From: a virus
Lineage: Duplodnaviria > Caudoviricetes
Virus record (IMG/VR): IMGVR_UViG_3300032303_002768
Location: 1-33,642 of that record
Strand: one strand, 5' to 3'
Length of the DNA stretch: 33,642 nt
Below the pieces are notes generated by a model. The model was given only the letters and a program-made list of their open reading frames with translations. It made no database searches and was not told the origin of the DNA. Of the stretch, positions 1,412-21,636 are shown one piece after another; the first letter of the stretch is position 1, and each line of letters opens with the position of its first letter. The position numbers and the translations under genes are program-made.

Positions 1412-1934
1412 AAGCGAAGTAGCAGTAATCAATCAGTTTGATCAAATGAATAAAGTAATTGAAGAATTACTTAAAGGCAATACTCCAACAGCAATTGCGA
1501 GGGGTCTAGAACTTACCCGTGTACAAGTTGATAATCACATACAAACATGGAAAGAGCTTGTACAAGATAACACAGCTATAAAAGCCCGTGCTAAAGAGGC
1601 ACTTGCTGGGGCAGATGAGCATTACAGCATGCTTATAAAAGAAGCATGGAGAACTGTAGAACAAGCAGATGTTCAAGATTCTCTTAATGTTAAGGCGCAA
1701 GCATTAAAACTTATTGCTGACATTGAATCTAAAAGAATTGAAATGTTAAATAAAGCTGGAGTTCTAGAAAATAATGATTTAACTGATCAGATATTAGAGT
1801 CTGAAAGAAAACAAGAAGTTTTAGTTGGAATTTTAAAAGAAGTGACTGCAAATTGCGAACATTGCAAATGGGAAGTTTCAAGAAGACTGTCCCAGGTTAC
1901 TGGACAGATAGAAGCTGTAGTTATTAATGAGTAA
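1398..1934 (+). CDS. Putative terminase small subunit (N-terminal HTH, helical)
   Basis: HTH-like LLKGNTPTAIARGLELT; overlaps terminase large start; ATG 1398 (or 1392) preferred over the track start at 1329. Confidence 0.6.
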   Translation: MEDNKSEVAVINQFDQMNKVIEELLKGNTPTAIARGLELTRVQVDNHIQTWKELVQDNTAIKARAKEALAGADEHYSMLIKEAWRTVEQADVQDSLNVKAQALKLIADIESKRIEMLNKAGVLENNDLTDQILESERKQEVLVGILKEVTANCEHCKWEVSRRLSQVTGQIEAVVINE

Positions 1935-3768
1935 CTTTGATGTTTTTTTAGATGCATTAAGTGGTGATGAATTTTCAGACACCCCCGTTCCACTAGAGCA
2001 ATTTGTTACAGATAAAAATTATCTTGGCTTGCCACCATTATCTCAATATCAATATCAAATGATTAAAGCTTCAACACAAATCTATAAACGTGAAACATTG
2101 ATTAGGATATATGGGCAAGAAGAGGGCGAAAAAATTTGGAAGCAAACCTGTTCTGAAGTTATTTTACAACTAGGAAAGGGTTCTGGAAAAGATTATACCT
2201 CTACAATTGCCTGTGCTTATATGGTGCATTTACTTTTATGCTTAAAAGATCCTGCAGCATATTATGGTAAACCACCAGGTGATGCAATTGATATTATTAA
2301 CATTGCTATTAACGCAGTTCAAGCTAATCGAGTATTCTTTAAAGGTTTTAATCAACGTATTGAAAAATCACCTTGGTTTCAAGGAAGATATATAGCAAAA
2401 GCAAACATGGTTGAGTTTGATAAATCTGTAACTGTACACTCAGGTCACTCAGAAAGAGAAGCATGGGAAGGTTATAACGTACTTGTTATTATTCTTGATG
2501 AAATTTCTGGATTTGAATTAGAATCAACAACAGGTCACGACCAAGCTAAAACAGCGTCAGCCATATATAAAATGTATCGTGCATCAGTAAATTCACGTTT
2601 TCCAGATTTTGGAAAAGTAATTTTGCTTTCTTTTCCTCGTTTTAAAAATGACTATATTCAACAAAAATATAATGAAGCTGTTGCAGAAAAAGAAGTTGTA
2701 TTAAGACATCATAAATTTAAAGTAGATCCAGATCTTCCTGATGGTACCGAAGGAAATGAATTTGAAATTGAATGGGAAGAAGACCATGTTGTTTCTTATA
2801 AAGTGCCAAGAATGTATGCATTAAAAAGACCAACATGGGATATTAACCCAACAAGAAAAATTGAAGATTTTACAATTGACTTTTATACGGATCCAACAGA
2901 CGCCCTATCCAGATTTGCTTGCATGCCACCAGACGCAACGGATGCATTTTTTAAAAATCGTGCAGTAATTGAAAAAGCTTTTTCTAACCCTAAATTAAAT
3001 GTTGATTCATATGGAAGATTTGATGATGAGTTTAAGCCAAAAGAAAACATAACATATTTTATGCATGTTGACCTTGCACAAAAACATGACCATTGTGCCG
3101 TAGCATTAGCCCACGTAGATGGCTGGGTAACAATGAAAATTGGAGAACAATATAAAGAAGCAGCACCCAGAGTTGTAGTAGACGCAGTTAGATTTTGGAC
3201 ACCTACAGCATCAAAATCAGTAGATTTTACAGATGTTAAAGACTACATTCTTTCCGTAAGAGATAAAGGTTTTAATTTAAAAATGGTTACATTTGACCGA
3301 TGGAACTCTCACGATATGATGCAACAGTTAGGTGTAAACAATATTAAAACTGAGATTCTTTCTGTTGCAAAAAAACATTATGAAGATCTTTCTTTATGTT
3401 TAACTGAAGAAAGATTACATGGTCCAAAAATACAGTTGTTAATTGATGAATTACTTCAGCTTCGTATTTTAAAGGACAAGGTAGACCACCCCAGAAAAGG
3501 CTCTAAAGACCTCTCTGATGCTGTTACAGGGGCGGTATTCAATGCAATATCACTAACTCCTCCAGATCAAGATAAAGAGGTGGAAGTCTACACCTACTCT
3601 GGAGTATTTTCAAGCGAACTAGAACTATTAAAAAAAGAATCAGATGCAAGATTAATAAACACTATAAGGTTGCCAGAAAAAAGAATTATGCCACAAGACA
3701 TAAGAGATTTTTTTGATGATGAAGATGGCGAATACAAAGATATAGTTGACAACTTTAAAATTTTATAG
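1927..3768 (+). CDS. terL: Terminase large subunit
   Basis: Walker A LGKGSGKD, Walker B VIILDE, RNase H-like HVDLAQKHD, TFDRW and DHPRKGSKDLSDA. Confidence 0.93.
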   Translation: MSNFDVFLDALSGDEFSDTPVPLEQFVTDKNYLGLPPLSQYQYQMIKASTQIYKRETLIRIYGQEEGEKIWKQTCSEVILQLGKGSGKDYTSTIACAYMVHLLLCLKDPAAYYGKPPGDAIDIINIAINAVQANRVFFKGFNQRIEKSPWFQGRYIAKANMVEFDKSVTVHSGHSEREAWEGYNVLVIILDEISGFELESTTGHDQAKTASAIYKMYRASVNSRFPDFGKVILLSFPRFKNDYIQQKYNEAVAEKEVVLRHHKFKVDPDLPDGTEGNEFEIEWEEDHVVSYKVPRMYALKRPTWDINPTRKIEDFTIDFYTDPTDALSRFACMPPDATDAFFKNRAVIEKAFSNPKLNVDSYGRFDDEFKPKENITYFMHVDLAQKHDHCAVALAHVDGWVTMKIGEQYKEAAPRVVVDAVRFWTPTASKSVDFTDVKDYILSVRDKGFNLKMVTFDRWNSHDMMQQLGVNNIKTEILSVAKKHYEDLSLCLTEERLHGPKIQLLIDELLQLRILKDKVDHPRKGSKDLSDAVTGAVFNAISLTPPDQDKEVEVYTYSGVFSSELELLKKESDARLINTIRLPEKRIMPQDIRDFFDDEDGEYKDIVDNFKIL

Positions 3769-5701: not shown

Positions 5702-5776
5702 CCTGCAGTAGCCTAATCTGGTTTTGGCAGCACTCTTATAAGGTGTCTATTGTGAGTTCAAATCTCATCTGCAGGA
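5702..5776 (+). tRNA. tRNA-Ile(TAT)
   Basis: CCTGCAG/CTGCAGG acceptor stem, GCACT-CTTATAA-GGTGT anticodon arm, GTGAG-TTCAAAT-CTCAT T arm, A discriminator. Confidence 0.85.
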
Positions 5777-5789
5777 CAAGAGGATAAAA

Positions 5790-7404: not shown

Positions 7405-8147
7405 AATATAAAAATGTTTATTCTAAAGTTCATAGAAACCAATTTGAATTAATAAATTCTTCAAATTACAGAAAGAATTTTTTTGGAGAAGAAAAAGAAA
7501 TAAATTCTCACGGTTTTAGATCAGAAGAATTTAAAAATGCACATCAAGGCAAGCACATTCTTTTTTCTGGATGTTCTGTGACTAGTGGTGTTGGTTTGTT
7601 ACAAGAAGAAATGTGGGCAAAAAAAACATATAATAAAATTTCAGAAAAAGAAGAATGTTCTGGATATTTTAATATAGGCATTGGTGCAAGTGGGTTATGC
7701 GATCAAGTATCAAATATGTTTAAATACTTTAACACTTATGGCAATCCAGACGTTATATTTTTTATGATACCAGACGAAGGTAGATTTTATCATTATAAGA
7801 AATCTTCTGATCAAATAAGCCATTCTTTTATTGAAGATGAATATAAAAATTTTATGCTTTTTATTTATTCTCAATATTATATGATGCTTGAGTCTTATTG
7901 CAAATCAAATAATATAAAATTGTTTTCAACAAGTTATGTTACAAACACACAAAATTATTTTAAGCAAAGATTTAAAACATTTTATCCAATTGATTCACAA
8001 AGTTTATATAATTTTGTTTTTAATAAAATTGAAAAAAATAAAGAATTAAAATATTTAGAAAAAGCAAGAGACAATATGCATTATGGGTCTGCATACCATG
8101 AATATTGGGCAGATCATTTTTTTAATTTATATAAAAAGGATATTTAG
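7401..8147 (+). CDS. SGNH/GDSL-like protein, paralog 3
   Basis: FSGCSVTSG, YFNIG, YGNPDVIF, DNMH; stop overlaps the carbamoyltransferase GTG. Confidence 0.65.
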   Translation: MKYKNVYSKVHRNQFELINSSNYRKNFFGEEKEINSHGFRSEEFKNAHQGKHILFSGCSVTSGVGLLQEEMWAKKTYNKISEKEECSGYFNIGIGASGLCDQVSNMFKYFNTYGNPDVIFFMIPDEGRFYHYKKSSDQISHSFIEDEYKNFMLFIYSQYYMMLESYCKSNNIKLFSTSYVTNTQNYFKQRFKTFYPIDSQSLYNFVFNKIEKNKELKYLEKARDNMHYGSAYHEYWADHFFNLYKKDI

Positions 8148-9571
8148 TGAACACATTAGGTTTTAATGAAACATCTCATGACGCTGCTATGGCACTAATT
8201 GATAATGATAGGATATTGTTTGCTGGTCATGCTGAAAGATATAGTAAGAAAAAAAATGATTGGTATAACAATAATGAAATATACCGTGATTTACTTAATT
8301 ATGGTATTCCAGATAAGGCTGCTTATTATGAAAAGTCCCGTTTAAAAAAAATAAGAATTAGGTTGCGTGGCGGGGCAGCTGACTGGAAACCTGTTGACAA
8401 AGGAATAAAGGCAAAAGAGTTTAAGCATCATTATTCTCATGCAGCAGCAGGATATTACACAAGTACATTTGATGATGCTTTAATTGTAGTTCTGGACGCA
8501 ATTGGAGAATTTAATACATCAACAATTTGGACGGGAATTGATAATGAGATATCCCTAGTAGAGAAAAGAAATTACCCTTTAAGCTTTGGGCTATTTTATT
8601 CAGCATTTACACAGTTGATTGGTCTTATGCCCAATCAAGAAGAATATATCATGATGGGTATGGCTGCATATGGAGATAAAAATAAATATTTTGATAAAGT
8701 AAATGAATATTTTCCAAGCATTGAAAGGCAAAAATATAATTTTCATAAAGGAATAACTGATTGGGGTTGGATTACTTCACATCAAGATGCATTTGATATT
8801 GCAGCAGCAGTTCAGTACGTCTATGAGCTTAGATTGATTGAATTTATGAATCATTCAAAGATAATGACTGGTAAAAACAATCTTGTGTTTATGGGCGGAT
8901 GTGCACTTAACTGTTCAGCAAATACATTGCTATGGAATATTTTTGATGATATTTGGATTATGCCAAACCCAGGAGATGCGGGTTCAAGCCTAGGATCAGC
9001 ATTGGCATTAAAAGGATCTCATATAAAATGGGAAAGCCCATACCTGGGTTATGATTTAAAAAATGAATATCCAGTTCAAAAAATTTTAGATGAATTGGTT
9101 AGCAAAGGAATAGCACCAGTAGCAGCGGGACGTGCAGAATTTGGTCCCCGAGCATTAGGTAATAGAAGCATATTAGCTGATCCAACAGACATAAGGGTTA
9201 AAGATAAAGTTAATCAAATAAAAAAAAGAGAAATGTTTAGGCCTTTTGCTCCAGTTGTAATGGAAGAGCATGCTAATGAATGGTTTGATATGCCAAAAGG
9301 TAAGCCAAGCCCTTATATGCAATATGCTGTTAAATGCCTAAAGCCAGATTTAATACCCGCAGTTGTACATAAAGATGGAACTTCAAGGGTTCAAACAGTA
9401 AATAAAGATCAACATCCAGGGCTGTATGAGGTTCTTAGTGTTTGGAATGAAATTACTGGAGTGCCAATTTTATTAAATACTAGTTTAAACATAAAAGGTC
9501 AACCACTTTTAAATGACTGGAATGATATCGTTGAGTGGAATAAAATGTATAAAACTGATATTATAGTGTAA
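8147..9571 (+). CDS. NodU/CmcH/TobZ-family O-carbamoyltransferase
   Basis: HDAA, HHYSHA, DAIGE, GGCALNC, GDAGSSLG, EFGPRALGNRS, RPFAP, HKDGTSRVQTV, LNTSLN. Confidence 0.93.
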   Translation: MNTLGFNETSHDAAMALIDNDRILFAGHAERYSKKKNDWYNNNEIYRDLLNYGIPDKAAYYEKSRLKKIRIRLRGGAADWKPVDKGIKAKEFKHHYSHAAAGYYTSTFDDALIVVLDAIGEFNTSTIWTGIDNEISLVEKRNYPLSFGLFYSAFTQLIGLMPNQEEYIMMGMAAYGDKNKYFDKVNEYFPSIERQKYNFHKGITDWGWITSHQDAFDIAAAVQYVYELRLIEFMNHSKIMTGKNNLVFMGGCALNCSANTLLWNIFDDIWIMPNPGDAGSSLGSALALKGSHIKWESPYLGYDLKNEYPVQKILDELVSKGIAPVAAGRAEFGPRALGNRSILADPTDIRVKDKVNQIKKREMFRPFAPVVMEEHANEWFDMPKGKPSPYMQYAVKCLKPDLIPAVVHKDGTSRVQTVNKDQHPGLYEVLSVWNEITGVPILLNTSLNIKGQPLLNDWNDIVEWNKMYKTDIIV

Positions 9572-9577
9572 CAACAT

Positions 9578-9648
9578 TCCCAGATCGTCTAACGGTAGGA
9601 CACCGCCCTTTGGAGGCGGGTATCTTGGTTCGAATCCAGGTCAGGGAG
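9578..9648 (+). tRNA. tRNA-Gln(TTG)
   Basis: TCCCAGA/TCAGGGA acceptor stem (one mismatch), CCGCC-CTTTGGA-GGCGG, CTTGG-TTCGAAT-CCAGG. Confidence 0.93.
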
Positions 9649-9651
9649 CAA

Positions 9652-9777
9652 GGCTATAAACGACACAACTTAGGATGTTATAGTTACATATACACCCGAA
9701 ACTCGGAAGCGAGTGGCGTGTGAGACAGATACAGCATGTACGTCATGTGCAACTGGAAGTCGCCATCGTTTATAGCC
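9652..9777 (+). ncRNA. Candidate structured ncRNA of unknown family
   Basis: Perfect 12-bp closing stem GGCTATAAACGA/TCGTTTATAGCC with internal hairpins; fills the tRNA-Gln to tRNA-Gly gap. Confidence 0.6.
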
Positions 9778-9780
9778 CCT

Positions 9781-9851
9781 GCGAATATTGCATAGTGGTA
9801 GTGCGTAACCTTGCCAAGGTTAATGTGCGAGTTCGATTCTCGCTATTCGCT
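9781..9851 (+). tRNA. tRNA-Gly(GCC)
   Basis: GCGAATA/TATTCGC, TAACC-TTGCCAA-GGTTA, GCGAG-TTCGATT-CTCGC, U discriminator. Confidence 0.95.
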
Positions 9852-9889
9852 CTTCGTGGTATAATTTATATAAATAATTAGGGGGAAAC

Positions 9890-12094: not shown

Positions 12095-13087
12095 ATGATT
12101 CATCATATGAGTATAGACCCAAATGGTTTTTGTAACGCAAAATGTTGGTTTTGTCCTGTTGCATACGTTGGCAATTCAAAAGAAAACAAAACAAACATGT
12201 CTCTTGAAACAATGGAAAGTATCTTTAAGCAATTAGATGAAGGTAAAGGCGATTGGGTTTCAGAAATGATTTTTAATACTCCAATTCATTTTAATGAAGT
12301 TTTGCTTTATCCGCATTTTGAAGAGATGCTAAGTTTGCATAGAAAATATAAAATTGGTGTAGGAATATATACCAACGGCGTAAACTTAACAAGAGAAAAA
12401 ACTGATCTAATTAAAAAATATCGAGACACTGTTACGGTTGTTGCCATAAATGTCCCTTCTTTAGAAGCAGAACAATGGTCTAAGTTTACTGGCTTTAATA
12501 TTAAAATTTTTCCAAAACTATTAGATAATCTTAAATATGCAGAAGAAAAACTTTCTAAAATATATTCACCAAAACATTTTTATATTATGGCAAACGGCGT
12601 TAATGAAAAATCATTATTTAAAAACGGGGGTTGGTTAGATATGTTGCCAAATGCTCCAAAATATGACATGGATTTAGATACAGGAACTCTTGCAAACATT
12701 GTAAAAAACATGAAAGAGTTGTTGCCAAATACAAACATATGGGGCAGAAATAATTTGGGTGATAGAACCAGTGTATTAGAAGATTTAAATATTATTTCAA
12801 ATCAATCTGCAATAAAAGAAAAAAATAAAGGAAAAGTAATTGGTTGTGGCTTGAAGTATAACGAAAATCTTTATATATCAGCTACGGGCAATGTTTATAT
12901 TTGTTGTGTAGATTTTAATTATGAAACAGTTTATGCAAATATTCATGAAACACCACTTAAAGAAATTTGGTTGGGCGCAGACAGAAGAGAAGCAATTCAA
13001 AAAGCTTATGATGGACTTTGTTTAAATTGTTTGCATGGAGTTAGAGAAGAAGGATCTGGTCCAGCGATTAAAAAGGTTATAGAGTAA
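12095..13087 (+). CDS. Radical SAM protein with twitch/SPASM-like C-terminus, paralog 1
   Basis: CNAKCWFC (CX3CX2C), NEVLLYP, TNG, then GC...GNVYICC...IW...CLNC. Confidence 0.9.
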   Translation: MIHHMSIDPNGFCNAKCWFCPVAYVGNSKENKTNMSLETMESIFKQLDEGKGDWVSEMIFNTPIHFNEVLLYPHFEEMLSLHRKYKIGVGIYTNGVNLTREKTDLIKKYRDTVTVVAINVPSLEAEQWSKFTGFNIKIFPKLLDNLKYAEEKLSKIYSPKHFYIMANGVNEKSLFKNGGWLDMLPNAPKYDMDLDTGTLANIVKNMKELLPNTNIWGRNNLGDRTSVLEDLNIISNQSAIKEKNKGKVIGCGLKYNENLYISATGNVYICCVDFNYETVYANIHETPLKEIWLGADRREAIQKAYDGLCLNCLHGVREEGSGPAIKKVIE

Positions 13088-13092
13088 TTTTA

Positions 13093-14085
13093 ATGATTAA
13101 AAGCATAAATATTGACCCTAATGGTTTATGTAATGCAAAATGCTGGTTTTGTCCAGTTGCTTATGAAGGCAATCCTAAAAAACAAAAAACAAACATGCCC
13201 TTAGATTTAATGGAAAGCATCCTTTCCCAGTTAGATGCGGGAAGAGGAGAATGGGTTTCAAAAAAAATATACAATGCGCCAATTCATTTTAATGAAGTAT
13301 TACTCTATCCATATTTTAAAGAAATGCTTGATTTGCATAGAAAATATAAGGTATCTGTATCCATTTATACTAATGGTGTAAACTTAACAAAGGAAAAAAC
13401 AGATACAATTGTAGAATACAGAGATGTTGTAGATTTAATAGCTTTAAATGTTCCATCTCTTAATGCAGAGCAATGGTCAAAATTTACTGGATTTAATATT
13501 AAAATTTTTCCTAAGTTAATAGAAAATTTAAAATATGCAGAAGAAAAATTATCAACTGTTTATTCTCCAGAAGATTTTTATATTATGGCAAACGGTGTTG
13601 ATGAGAAGTCATTATTTAAAAATGGTGGATGGATAGAAATGCTAGAAGATGCTCCAAATTACAACCTAGATTTAAATAATGGAACCTTAGCTACAATTGT
13701 AAAAGAAATGAAAGAAATTTTACCAAATACAAATATTTGGGGAAGAAACAATTTGGGCGATAGAACTGGTGTTTTAGAAGAACTTAAAATAATTTCTAAT
13801 CAATCTGCAGTTAACCAAAAAAATAGCGGTAAAGTAATTGGTTGTGGTTTAAAGTTTGATGAAAGACTTTACATTGCAGCAAATGGGGATGTTTATATTT
13901 GTGCTGTAGACTTTAATTATGAAATTGTTTATGGCAATGTAAAAGAAATACCACTTAAAGAAATTTGGCAAGGATCACAAAGAAAAGATGCTATCAAAAA
14001 AAGCTACGAAACTTTGTGTCAATCATGTCTACATGCAATTAAAGAAGAAGGTTCTGGACCCTCATTAGTAAAGGTGATAAAATAA
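13093..14085 (+). CDS. Radical SAM protein with twitch/SPASM-like C-terminus, paralog 2
   Basis: CNAKCWFC, TNG, GC...GDVYICA...CQSC. Confidence 0.9.
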   Translation: MIKSINIDPNGLCNAKCWFCPVAYEGNPKKQKTNMPLDLMESILSQLDAGRGEWVSKKIYNAPIHFNEVLLYPYFKEMLDLHRKYKVSVSIYTNGVNLTKEKTDTIVEYRDVVDLIALNVPSLNAEQWSKFTGFNIKIFPKLIENLKYAEEKLSTVYSPEDFYIMANGVDEKSLFKNGGWIEMLEDAPNYNLDLNNGTLATIVKEMKEILPNTNIWGRNNLGDRTGVLEELKIISNQSAVNQKNSGKVIGCGLKFDERLYIAANGDVYICAVDFNYEIVYGNVKEIPLKEIWQGSQRKDAIKKSYETLCQSCLHAIKEEGSGPSLVKVIK

Positions 14086-14087
14086 AA

Positions 14088-15107
14088 ATGATAAAGTTAT
14101 ATGAATATAAACCAAAAATTAAATATGTAAATATTGATCCAAATGGAATATGTAATGCAAAATGTTGGTTTTGCCCAGTTGCATATGTAGGAAATTCAAA
14201 AGAAAATAAAACAAATATGTCTATTGAAACAATGGAAAATATTTTTAAACAACTTGATGAAGGCCGTGGAGATTTTGTTGTTCCAGGAACAATTTTTAAT
14301 TCTCCAATTCATTTTAACGAAATGTTACTATATCCATATTTTGAAGAAATGCTTGAGCTTCATAGAAAATATAATATTGCTATGATTGTTTTTACTAACG
14401 GCGTAAATTTAACAAAAGAAAAAACTGATCTAATTAAAAAATACAAAGATGTTGTTAAAGAAGTAAGGTTAAACGTTCCTTCAGCAAATGCAGAAGAATG
14501 GTCTAAATTTACTGGTTTTAATATTAAAATTTTTCCAAAACTTTTAGATAATATTAAATATGCAGAACAAGAATTGTCTACGATTTATGATTCAAAAACT
14601 TTTTATATAATGGTAAATGGTGTTAATGAAAAATCATTATATAAAAACGGTGGTTGGACTGAAATTCTTGAAAATGCACCAGAATATAATTTGAGCTTAA
14701 AAGACGGAACAATGTCAAAAGCAGTTGAAGAATTTAAAGTTATTTTTCCAAAAATACATGTTTGGGGAGGAAATAATTTAAGCGATAGAACAAGCATCTT
14801 GGAAGATTTAAAAATTATATCTAATCAACCTTCAATTAAAACAAAAAATCAAGGAAAAGTAATAGGTTGCGGAACATCCTTTAATCAAGCGTTTTACATA
14901 TCTGCAACTGGCAATGTTTATATTTGCTGCATAGATTTTGACTATGAGACAGTTTACGCAAATATTCATAATACTTCTATTAAAGAAATTTGGGAAGGAT
15001 CTCAAAGGCAAGAGGCAATTAAAAAAGCGTATTCTGGTTTATGTGTTGAATGCCTTCATGCAATAAAAGAAGAGGGATCTGGGCCCAGCTTGCAAAAAAC
15101 AATTTAA
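14088..15107 (+). CDS. Radical SAM protein with twitch/SPASM-like C-terminus, paralog 3
   Basis: CNAKCWFC, TNG, GC...GNVYICC...CVEC. Confidence 0.9.
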   Translation: MIKLYEYKPKIKYVNIDPNGICNAKCWFCPVAYVGNSKENKTNMSIETMENIFKQLDEGRGDFVVPGTIFNSPIHFNEMLLYPYFEEMLELHRKYNIAMIVFTNGVNLTKEKTDLIKKYKDVVKEVRLNVPSANAEEWSKFTGFNIKIFPKLLDNIKYAEQELSTIYDSKTFYIMVNGVNEKSLYKNGGWTEILENAPEYNLSLKDGTMSKAVEEFKVIFPKIHVWGGNNLSDRTSILEDLKIISNQPSIKTKNQGKVIGCGTSFNQAFYISATGNVYICCIDFDYETVYANIHNTSIKEIWEGSQRQEAIKKAYSGLCVECLHAIKEEGSGPSLQKTI

Positions 15108-15717: not shown

Positions 15718-16650
15718 ATGCATCAAGTGTCTCTTGTTCGCATCATAGGAAATGATGTCCCTGAAATACACAGCCAAGACCAATCTTTAAAAAATTTAAT
15801 TTATATTTTAAAAAATGAAAAAAATTTTATAAATTGCAAAAAAATATTTATTTTAAACAAAATAGTTAATAAAAATATTGAAAAAGAAATTATTGATCAA
15901 CTTAAAAAACATAATATTGAATATTTTATTATACCTTTTCAAACAAAAGAATTTATAAATTTATTTAATAAAAATTTTAAATGTTTAGATAAAAAACTAA
16001 ATTTGTTTAATTTTGAACCAGAGGATTCCTTTGCTTTAACAGAAACAATGTCGGAATCTATATATTTTTTAACAAATGTAAATAAAGCAAGAAATTTTGG
16101 AATAGAAAAAGGAAATATTTATTCAAATACAACTTTAATATTTGATGGTAGTTGTTTTATGACAGAAGAACTTTATTTTGATTTTTTAAATAATTTAAAT
16201 AAAACAGATAAAAATGATAAAGCTATTTTTATTTTTCCAATGCATCGTTTATCAAATTACAATCAAATAAAAAATAAAGAAAAACATAATTTTTGGTTTG
16301 AGCCACAAATTGGAATGAAAAATATTGTTTTAAATTTTGACAATAATAAACAATGGCCAGAAGATAAAATTGAATTTTTACACAGATATGGCATAGAAGG
16401 TTATTGGGATTTATGGAAAGAAAAAAATCAAAAATATGAAAGTCTAGATTGTTTAAAGATTTATTGCAAGGGAGTATTTAGGCTTCCAACTTGGACATTT
16501 TTTGACATAAAAAACAAAAACAAAAAACCAGACCTAAATTCAATAAAAAACTTTGGATTAATACCTGGCAGAAATTTATTTAGAAAAGTAGGATTGATCA
16601 AGCTTTTAACATTGGCATATTCACAATCTTTTATTGACAAAGAAGGTTGA
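15718..16650 (+). CDS. Putative GT-A-like glycosyltransferase, paralog 2
   Basis: RIIGND, NKARN, LIFDGSCFM, EPQ; clearly homologous to 11180..12052. Confidence 0.5.
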   Translation: MHQVSLVRIIGNDVPEIHSQDQSLKNLIYILKNEKNFINCKKIFILNKIVNKNIEKEIIDQLKKHNIEYFIIPFQTKEFINLFNKNFKCLDKKLNLFNFEPEDSFALTETMSESIYFLTNVNKARNFGIEKGNIYSNTTLIFDGSCFMTEELYFDFLNNLNKTDKNDKAIFIFPMHRLSNYNQIKNKEKHNFWFEPQIGMKNIVLNFDNNKQWPEDKIEFLHRYGIEGYWDLWKEKNQKYESLDCLKIYCKGVFRLPTWTFFDIKNKNKKPDLNSIKNFGLIPGRNLFRKVGLIKLLTLAYSQSFIDKEG

Positions 16651-19612: not shown

Positions 19613-19829
19613 ATTAAATTATAAAGAAGCACATAATTTTGTTGAAAAAAATAAAAATCAAGGATTTTATTGGGACGGATGGACTTTAATTAAGTTCACC
19701 CCTCATAGCGGTGCATATACTGATGCAAAAGGTATTTACAAAAACAATAAATGGGGATACGCTAATCGTTATCAATTAAAGTCAGACGGTTTTTGGGAAA
19801 TAAGCGACAAATATGCCAAGCTTATTTAA
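19605..19829 (+). CDS. Hypothetical protein (Trp/Gly-rich)
   Basis: Overlap-coupled ORF with WDGWT motif. Confidence 0.7.
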   Translation: MIKLNYKEAHNFVEKNKNQGFYWDGWTLIKFTPHSGAYTDAKGIYKNNKWGYANRYQLKSDGFWEISDKYAKLI

Positions 19830-20151
19830 TCAAATAGGATTAGATGAAGAAGATGTAAAATGGTATCATCTTGCTGCATGTAAAGGGATGACTACAAACC
19901 CTAAATACGATTGGTTTTATGATTTATATGAAACAGACAAAATTGTATCACAACAAGTTGATCAAATTTGTCTTAGTTGTCCAGTTATAAAACAATGTTA
20001 TGCAGAAGGTGTTGCAGGAAAAGAAAAGGGAGTATGGGGTGGTATTTATATGGATCTTGGTAGGCCAGATAAACAACACAATTCACACAAAAGCCCTGAA
20101 ATTTGGAAAGAACTAAAAAAAATTCATGGCAAAAATAAAATACAGCGTTGA
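19813..20151 (+). CDS. whiB: WhiB-family Fe-S transcription factor
   Basis: W...AAC...F...CLSCPVIKQC...GVWGG. Confidence 0.9.
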   Translation: MPSLFNQIGLDEEDVKWYHLAACKGMTTNPKYDWFYDLYETDKIVSQQVDQICLSCPVIKQCYAEGVAGKEKGVWGGIYMDLGRPDKQHNSHKSPEIWKELKKIHGKNKIQR

Positions 20152-21090: not shown

Positions 21091-21636
21091 ATGACAACAA
21101 TTGTTGCTGTTGCTAAAAATGGTACTGTAACTATGGGAGCTGATTCACAAGTTACAGATCAATCAAGACCAAACCGACATGCTAAAATGGAAAAAATTAC
21201 TAAGAACAATGGTTGGTTAATTGCTGGTAGTGGAGATGCTACGCCATGCGATATTCTGCAACACATTTTTATTCCACCAGTTCCAACTCTTAAAGAAAGA
21301 GATAATCTTTATAAATTTATGATTACAAAATTTATTCCAGCAATGCGTGAATGTTTATCTGACAATGATTGGAAGCCTGACCAAAATGATAAAGAGTCTG
21401 GATTTAATATGTTGTTTGCATTTGACGGAGAAGTATTTGACATAGGAAATGACTTTAGTGTAATGTTAAATAGTGATGGAATACATGGCGTTGGGAATGG
21501 TTCAGAGTATGCAATTGGCGCTCTTTATGCAGGAGCAAGTGTTGAAAAAGCTTTAGAAATTGCTTCAATTAACGACATCTATACTTCTGGCCCTTATCAA
21601 ATTGTAAAACAACAAAAAACAACTAAAACAAAATAA
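21091..21636 (+). CDS. HslV/proteasome-beta-like Ntn threonine protease
   Basis: MTTIVAV..MGADSQ..K..AGSG..GNGSEYAIGAL..D. Confidence 0.8.
   Translation: MTTIVAVAKNGTVTMGADSQVTDQSRPNRHAKMEKITKNNGWLIAGSGDATPCDILQHIFIPPVPTLKERDNLYKFMITKFIPAMRECLSDNDWKPDQNDKESGFNMLFAFDGEVFDIGNDFSVMLNSDGIHGVGNGSEYAIGALYAGASVEKALEIASINDIYTSGPYQIVKQQKTTKTK

Follow-up and report, generated by a model that had tools for sequence, protein, structure and literature searches.

A candidate phage RNA gene between tRNA genes and its predicted pairing with helix 69 of 23S rRNA

The locus and its structured spacer

The window, meaning the whole stretch of 33,642 nucleotides that was analysed, is a tailed-phage fragment (30% complete) whose genes include those for a terminase, WhiB, Hsp20, GroES and ferritin. 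Because the phage carries a WhiB gene, its sequence points to an actinomycete host. Four contigs carrying members of the small-RNA family described below (78-95 kb, 72-81% complete) additionally encode portal, capsid and tail tube proteins, a DnaE-type polymerase and RecA. Around the tRNA region of the window (12095-15107 and 8147-9571) this phage has an insertion of a carbamoyltransferase gene and three radical SAM/SPASM genes in tandem, possibly a modification cluster. An HslV/proteasome-type peptidase (21091-21636) is common to four of the five contigs compared, and a tRNA-Ile with anticodon UAU (5702-5777), a type uncommon in bacteria, recurs in relatives. The element under study occupies the spacer between two further tRNA genes (Table 1).

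Table 1 Positions of the small RNA, its parts and the neighbouring or diagnostic genes in the window.
Feature	Position	Strand	Remark
Terminase large subunit	1927..3768	+	Synteny anchor for collecting relatives
Tentative -10-like hexamer	9562..9567	+	Weak; 10 nt before tRNA-Gln
tRNA-Gln(UUG)	9578..9649	+	Upstream neighbour of small RNA; Rfam end 9648
Small RNA gene	9652..9777	+	Single copy in window; folding, family, covariation
P1 closing stem, 5' arm	9652..9663	+	Covariation figures in text
Conserved core	9669..9687	+	Complement of 23S rRNA 1910-1929 (helix 69 loop and 3' strand)
P3, short hairpin presenting the core	9675..9689	+	91% of cells paired, little covariation
Predicted exposed seed, hairpin apex	9683..9687	+	Faces 23S 1910-1914
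Variable hairpin domain (ACUCG hairpin)	9691..9722	+	Missing from 77-79-nt members
Second variable hairpin	9734..9748	+	Missing from 77-79-nt members
Possible second contact to 23S 1933-1942	9755..9763	+	p 0.79 in window RNA, not significant
P1 closing stem, 3' arm	9766..9777	+	Covariation with 5' arm
tRNA-Gly(GCC)	9781..9852	+	Downstream neighbour of small RNA
WhiB gene	19813..20151	+	PF02467, E 1e-8

An earlier note had singled out this spacer as a structured RNA that tRNA processing would release. The letters and the 12-bp closing stem described there (9652-9663/9766-9777) are present, with predicted pair probabilities of 0.84-1.0, and the stem does lie 3 nt from each tRNA, if tRNA-Gln is taken to end where Rfam places it (9648) and tRNA-Gly to start at 9781. 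The spacer is also, as had been remarked, richer in G+C than its neighbours (0.46 versus 0.34 and 0.37 in the flanking genes), and its folding z-score is -3.0, with 2 of 200 shuffles folding equally well. The pairings proposed within the stem hold up less well. For example, the ACUCG-GAAG-CGAGU hairpin is well predicted in the window (0.85-1.0), whereas in each of the three closest variants a 4-bp ACUC/GAGU stem carries a different loop. Similarly, the letters of the GCAUGU/AUGUGC hairpin are present, but the register given for it has a probability of 0.03 and a shifted register is preferred. A mutually exclusive alternative pairing (CCGA/TCGG plus TGGCG/CGCCA) is broken in two of the three closest variants and is unsupported.

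ARAGORN and Rfam find no tRNA cloverleaf at 9652-9777, in keeping with the earlier description, and the only Rfam matches at E <= 10 are the two flanking tRNAs, leaving the spacer itself without a family. A search of GenBank phages and plasmids with the element returned no match. A mini reading frame in the core was also considered and rejected, as the frame is not maintained across the sequences of related RNAs. Release of the small RNA by tRNA processing is plausible, with predicted ends at 9649-9652 and 9777-9780. A promoter scan listed no site on the + strand, and the eight public runs examined (of 24 listed, with shares under 0.1) gave tRNA matches only and no transcript of the element.

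A family of related phage RNAs

Related elements were collected by several routes. A search with a pattern built on the two stem arms returned nine near-identical loci with differing flanking tRNAs, the best 80 of 597 terminase relatives yielded diverged copies in tRNA spacers, and further members came from a core pattern run over 25 of the 64 parts of IMG/VR. Filtering for the core and a terminal stem of at least 11 pairs gave 37 distinct sequences, from which L128, a chance coding match missed by the family model, was removed. The resulting family comprises 36 distinct phage RNAs of 77-138 nt, the shortest of which (77-79 nt) retain little beyond the stem and core.

The alignment used for covariation held 34 rows, namely 33 of the 36 members plus L033, with three near-duplicates left out. 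Each of the 12 pairs of the closing stem shows changes in both of its bases, and the share of paired cells is 97% (30-43% in slid controls), a percentage that, like counts of 36 out of 36 in this family, is partly circular because members were selected by the core pattern and the stem filter. The filter raises the percentage of pairing and not the variety of stems, and 24 different closing stems occur among the members. The inner helices are weaker, with 74-91% of cells paired.

The core was present in all 37 loci with a terminase identity of at least 70% and at least 1.6 kb of downstream sequence, which are kin and not independent, and in 4 of 20 loci below 70% identity. One copy of the RNA was found in the window and one in each of three carrier contigs, a count that leaves aside the stretch of G002 holding the copy of L022. 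In relatives, its upstream neighbour is tRNA-Met, Leu, Asp or Ile, or else a promoter-like hexamer. Of the eight members not preceded by a tRNA, seven have a -10-like hexamer that stops 7-8 nt short of the stem, as expected for a discrete RNA. A possible distant member from metagenome contigs (L451:330-436, - strand, and L512; E 0.21) has no clear closing stem. Taken together, the homologues, the covariation and the hexamer sustain the earlier proposal of a discrete phage small RNA, but not the decoy, Y-RNA, tRNA-mimic or ribozyme roles attached to it, and on comparative sequence evidence 9652-9777 is a real, conserved and uncatalogued RNA gene.

Complementarity of the core to 23S rRNA helix 69

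All 12 invariant alignment columns fall in a stretch of 20 bases downstream of the 5' arm, here termed the core. The reverse-complement pattern of the core matches approximately 72,000 stretches of bacterial genomes, and in all five loci checked the match lies inside large-subunit rRNA and starts at E. coli position 1910. The core of the window RNA (9669-9687) forms 19 Watson-Crick pairs with actinomycete 23S 1910-1929, with one target C bulged, a relationship that the earlier note had overlooked. An initial antisense scoring was too permissive to be informative (0 of 36 members at the site), and three stricter scorings were used instead; under these, helix 69 was the best antisense site in 16S, 23S and 5S rRNA for 34-36 of the 36 members, a result that is partly circular. 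Taken by itself, the window sequence gives an antisense match of modest significance, equalled by 1-9 of 1000 shuffles, and one other of 532 window tiles scores as high as or higher than the core tile. Elsewhere in the window, the stretch 16381-16506, inside an ORF, contains 16 bases that are perfectly antisense to a different region of 23S rRNA, with a score equal to that of the core, and is treated as a chance match.

Three results are free of the circularity introduced by member selection, namely the extended complement of L081 and L084, the full pairing of L503 and L515, and the free positions in the scan of other phage groups described below. Two differently built elements located before tRNA-Arg (L081:4750-4850 and L084:8615-8715) carry a continuous 27-base complement to 23S 1910-1936, and the extension to 1936 was not built into member selection. 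Changes at positions 1915, 1923, 1926, 1929 and 1930 all keep pairing through G.U. Because of these G.U-keeping changes and a strand bias, a role of the core as a DNA-level target or attachment site is disfavoured. Seven different central spellings occur among the 36 members, each imperfect opposite 1919-1921. A bulge or mismatch at this point was initially taken as obligatory, being true of 36/36 members, but is refuted by L503 and L515, found later, in which all 21 bases pair with the actinomycete variant (-40.6 versus -34.2 kcal/mol); within IMG/VR, no fully paired core of the actinomycete type was found. On these sequence comparisons we consider it likely that the RNA pairs with helix 69 of host 23S rRNA in the cell.

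The middle four bases of the 23S site vary among bacteria. Of 120 loci, 20 have CCAU, and every one of these carries a title naming actinomycetes or Actinomycetota; another 96 have CGGU, including a few Actinomycetota. CCAU was likewise present in all five 1.3-Mb genomes of the class, and a wider class search matched 235 of 401 genomes, including one unpublished genome (G382) that is not the sole basis of any claim. Nearly every family member (35/36) pairs better with the actinomycete variant, by a mean of 2.1 kcal/mol, whereas the core of the window itself barely separates the host variants (-24.2 versus -24.1; difference 0.1-0.3 kcal/mol). The predicted preference of the family for the actinomycete rRNA variant fits with a WhiB-bearing phage.

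The predicted fold is arranged like that of loop-presenting antisense RNAs. The last five bases of the core are left free at the tip of a hairpin, with the remainder held in short helices, and this putative seed has an unpaired probability of 0.79-0.90 in the window RNA and a mean of 0.83-0.91 over the 36 members. When co-folded with the target region, the window RNA gains 9.5 kcal/mol, above any of 183 other 23S pieces, and the family a mean of 5.4 kcal/mol; these gains are moderate, with values near 0 in five members and P1 opened in 34 of 36. A second guide on the 3' side, directed at 23S 1929-1950, was rejected as a general feature (p < 0.05 in 4/23 and 4/34, with medians of 0.39 and 0.31); such a contact stands out in L174, L146 and L493, and for these few subfamilies it is a lead only. 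Against the 16S tail, no partner RNA in the window rose above background.

Complements to the same target occur in other phage groups. A scan of viral sequences for complements to the CGGU-type helix 69, leaving three positions free and excluding rRNA, returned 49 matches. The free positions pair in 42 of these (14 of the 20 distinct matches), where chance predicts 2 in 64. Almost all matches are non-coding, and in 43 of the 49 a stop codon on the same strand precedes the match by no more than 21 nt; the 23 upstream ORFs scanned include 13 for capsid or other virion proteins and three for lysis proteins. A terminator-like hairpin follows on the same strand in 10 of the 20 distinct matches, versus 1 of 20 on the other strand. 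In L359-L425, L109, L169, L200 and L117, for example, the complement lies a few bases after the stop of major capsid, spanin or other late genes, and in several phage groups it precedes a terminator. The family model R1 does not find these complements, indicating that the target is common to the groups and the scaffold is not. Intergenic complements also occur in the cultured Vibrio phage PWH3a-P1 (L431:1500-1524, to 23S 1907-1931), Staphylococcus phage SpP (L432:1501-1517, to 1908-1924) and Arcanobacterium phage TPWB06 (L433:1501-1530, to 1927-1957).

Possible mode of action and comparison with known systems

The best reading of these data is an antisense RNA, presented in a loop, that would bind 50S subunits while they are free or immature and keep them from joining the 30S, a proposal to which we give about an even chance. 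Helix 69 forms bridge B2a, and its tip is exposed once the subunits separate (PMC4289901, in part), so that the reachable target would be a free or assembling 50S. We infer that the small RNA is transcribed and excised from the tRNA transcript, after which its exposed seed would touch the helix-69 loop of a free or still-assembling 50S and this contact would allow the core to zip into a 19-pair duplex. The bound 126-nt RNA would then bar bridge B2a, taking 50S subunits out of use. In E. coli, translation was blocked by a peptide nucleic acid (PNA) that targets helix 69 (Kulik 2017, as cited in PMC12828698, in part).

The purpose may be to throttle, in late infection, the supply of host ribosomes, and rRNA may thereby be fed to decay. 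This is the weakest step, because the phage needs ribosomes too and inactivated 50S subunits would hurt phage translation. In E. coli, one helix-69 mutation triggers ribosome decay while deletion of helix 69 does not (PMC4289901, in part). The fact that deletion leaves ribosomes stable weakens the decay step, and the overall pattern fits either throttling or shielding of the subunits.

Shielding, the main rival explanation, is in our view fairly unlikely. Here the RNA would cap the exposed helix 69-70 face of idle 50S subunits, protecting them from host or toxin RNases so that the phage can use the ribosomes, and would later be displaced or released. It sits beside phage tRNAs, a class of gene that often counters host RNases, and the bulge or mismatch opposite 1919-1921 in all 36 members would ease release, although a fully paired member exists and no release mechanism is evident. 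Helix 69 has been proposed as the entry point for a degrading endonuclease, and its deletion did not trigger decay (PMC4289901, in part), and actinomycete MazF toxins cut helix/loop 70 in the 50S subunit but not in 70S ribosomes (PMC5408214, in part). However, the conserved contact is with helix 69 and not with the loop-70 cut site, and only 4 of the 23 representatives reach p < 0.05 for a contact of the 3' side with 1929-1950.

That the RNA instead acts as a guide or splint, recruiting an enzyme (a nuclease, a modifier or an RNA ligase) to 23S positions around 1919-1921, is improbable. The imperfection that all seven central spellings leave there, together with the lack of a fully paired actinomycete-type core in IMG/VR, would suit such a role, but L503 and L515 are fully paired, as are 42 of the 49 general-type matches. 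Moreover, 184 proteins from five contigs, many of these proteins unannotated, yielded no match to the families of RNA ligases, Ro60, pseudouridine synthases or RNase III (40 from the window and 144 cluster representatives of 296 clusters, from contigs 30-81% complete).

Less probable again is an RNA that soaks up precursor rRNA or an rRNA fragment, or acts in cis as a tether of late transcripts. Full zipping would need helix 69 and its junction to be unfolded, which is easier in precursors or fragments, and many general-type copies lie directly behind stop codons; against this, the RNA's own closing stem and its frequent promoter-like hexamer suit a trans-acting RNA, and we know of no fragment-sensing partner. 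Least credible is a structured RNA of another kind (a decoy, tRNA or Y-RNA mimic, ribozyme, or RNA around the promoter-like TATAGT) with a chance rRNA match, for although single-sequence significance is modest, the core contains a -10-like hexamer and true Y-like RNAs occupy similar spacers of distant relatives, the independent extension, the G.U-keeping changes, the host-variant match, the 42/49 test and the absence of the GNCGAA motif and T-loop (both 0/36) all speak against it.

In the literature searched, mostly non-subscription, no natural phage RNA pairing with 23S rRNA was found. Six supplement files of a catalogue of viral structured RNAs (PMC10690425) gave no match, and the family may be listed in three others. 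If pairing occurs as predicted, this would be a naturally occurring viral RNA that targets the ribosome of bacteria at its functional core, a mode of host takeover not seen in that literature. The predicted contact is exact and therefore open to compensating mutations, cultured carriers are known, including a phage of Vibrio natriegens, and the host-matched core could help to assign hosts to uncultured phages.

Among known RNAs, YrlA is 80-130 nt long, has its ends paired in a long stem and is found in phages (PMC4201824, in part). The window RNA is alike in size range, long terminal stem and phage occurrence, but its family lacks the GNCGAA motif, T-loop and any Rfam match, and no Ro60 (TROVE) gene was found in the four carrier contigs, so the Y-RNA role once suggested for it is not borne out. 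Y-RNA-like elements, with a GNCGAA-type start and a T-arm-like hairpin, do occur in tRNA spacers of distant relatives (L089:12009-12357, L091:9826-10187, L092:13617-14053), where Rfam searches at the gathering score miss them; a TROVE protein is encoded in the genome of L092, and Ro60 (TROVE) was found in the distant phage G411. The suggestion of a tRNA mimic is likewise unsupported, with no T-loop in the 36 members and no tRNA or tmRNA at 9652-9777, as is that of a ribozyme, for which Rfam gives no match at E <= 10. HDV-like tRNA-linked (theta) ribozymes form a nested pseudoknot with a conserved L3 motif; an L3-like motif occurs in only 2 of 36 members of the present family, in which it is instead the 3' end that covaries with the 5' arm.

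The T4 RNAs rnaC and rnaD (species 1 and 2) are structured, late RNAs of approximately 120-140 nt from a tRNA cluster, and papers of 2010, 2022 and 2025 still give their function as unknown (PMC9697503, PMC3014915, PMC12685909, each in part). They resemble the window RNA in size and in their location in a phage tRNA cluster, but show no similarity to it in sequence or model: R1 has no match in the T4 tRNA region (L434), and rnaD has no helix-69 complement. The 5' hairpin loop of rnaD (L434:2054-2172, - strand) exactly complements the eight bases of 23S 1929-1936, which is a lead only; in the window RNA, a complement to this stretch does not reach significance. The rnaD loop is invariant in nine aligned T-even phages (of 735 records matched), and a complement to 1929-1936 is again found next to the helix-69 complements of L384, L405 and L431; a longer rnaD match to 1937-1944 is not conserved and was dropped. 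The complement would give a one-loop test for T4 rnaD. Tentatively, and with somewhat less than even confidence, we suggest that abundant late anti-ribosome RNAs, which pair with helix 69-70, govern subunit joining or the fate of the ribosome and are tuned to the host variant, arose repeatedly in the phages of several groups of bacteria, with the window RNA as the stand-alone actinomycete form, capsid 3' ends as the tethered form and T4 rnaD as a member at 1929-1936.

The synthetic PNA against helix 69 has the same target and blocks translation, but is a man-made oligomer and not a natural gene (PMC12828698, in part). As in trans-acting antisense small RNAs, the window RNA appears to be a discrete non-coding gene, judged by its covarying stem, changing neighbours and hexamer, and carries a conserved, predicted-exposed seed complementary to its target. 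Internal guide sequences of group I introns pair near 23S 1917-1931, and eukaryotic and archaeal snoRNA guides base-pair with large-subunit rRNA near helix 69; the window RNA differs from both in being virus-encoded, without an intron core and with no partner enzyme found. In CopA/CopT and RNA I/RNA II, a loop-exposed seed makes the first contact and strand exchange then gives a longer duplex, the targets being mRNAs or primer RNAs. With its predicted seed and zipping, the window RNA resembles these loop-presenting antisense RNAs, but its predicted target is instead the subunit-joining helix of 23S rRNA.
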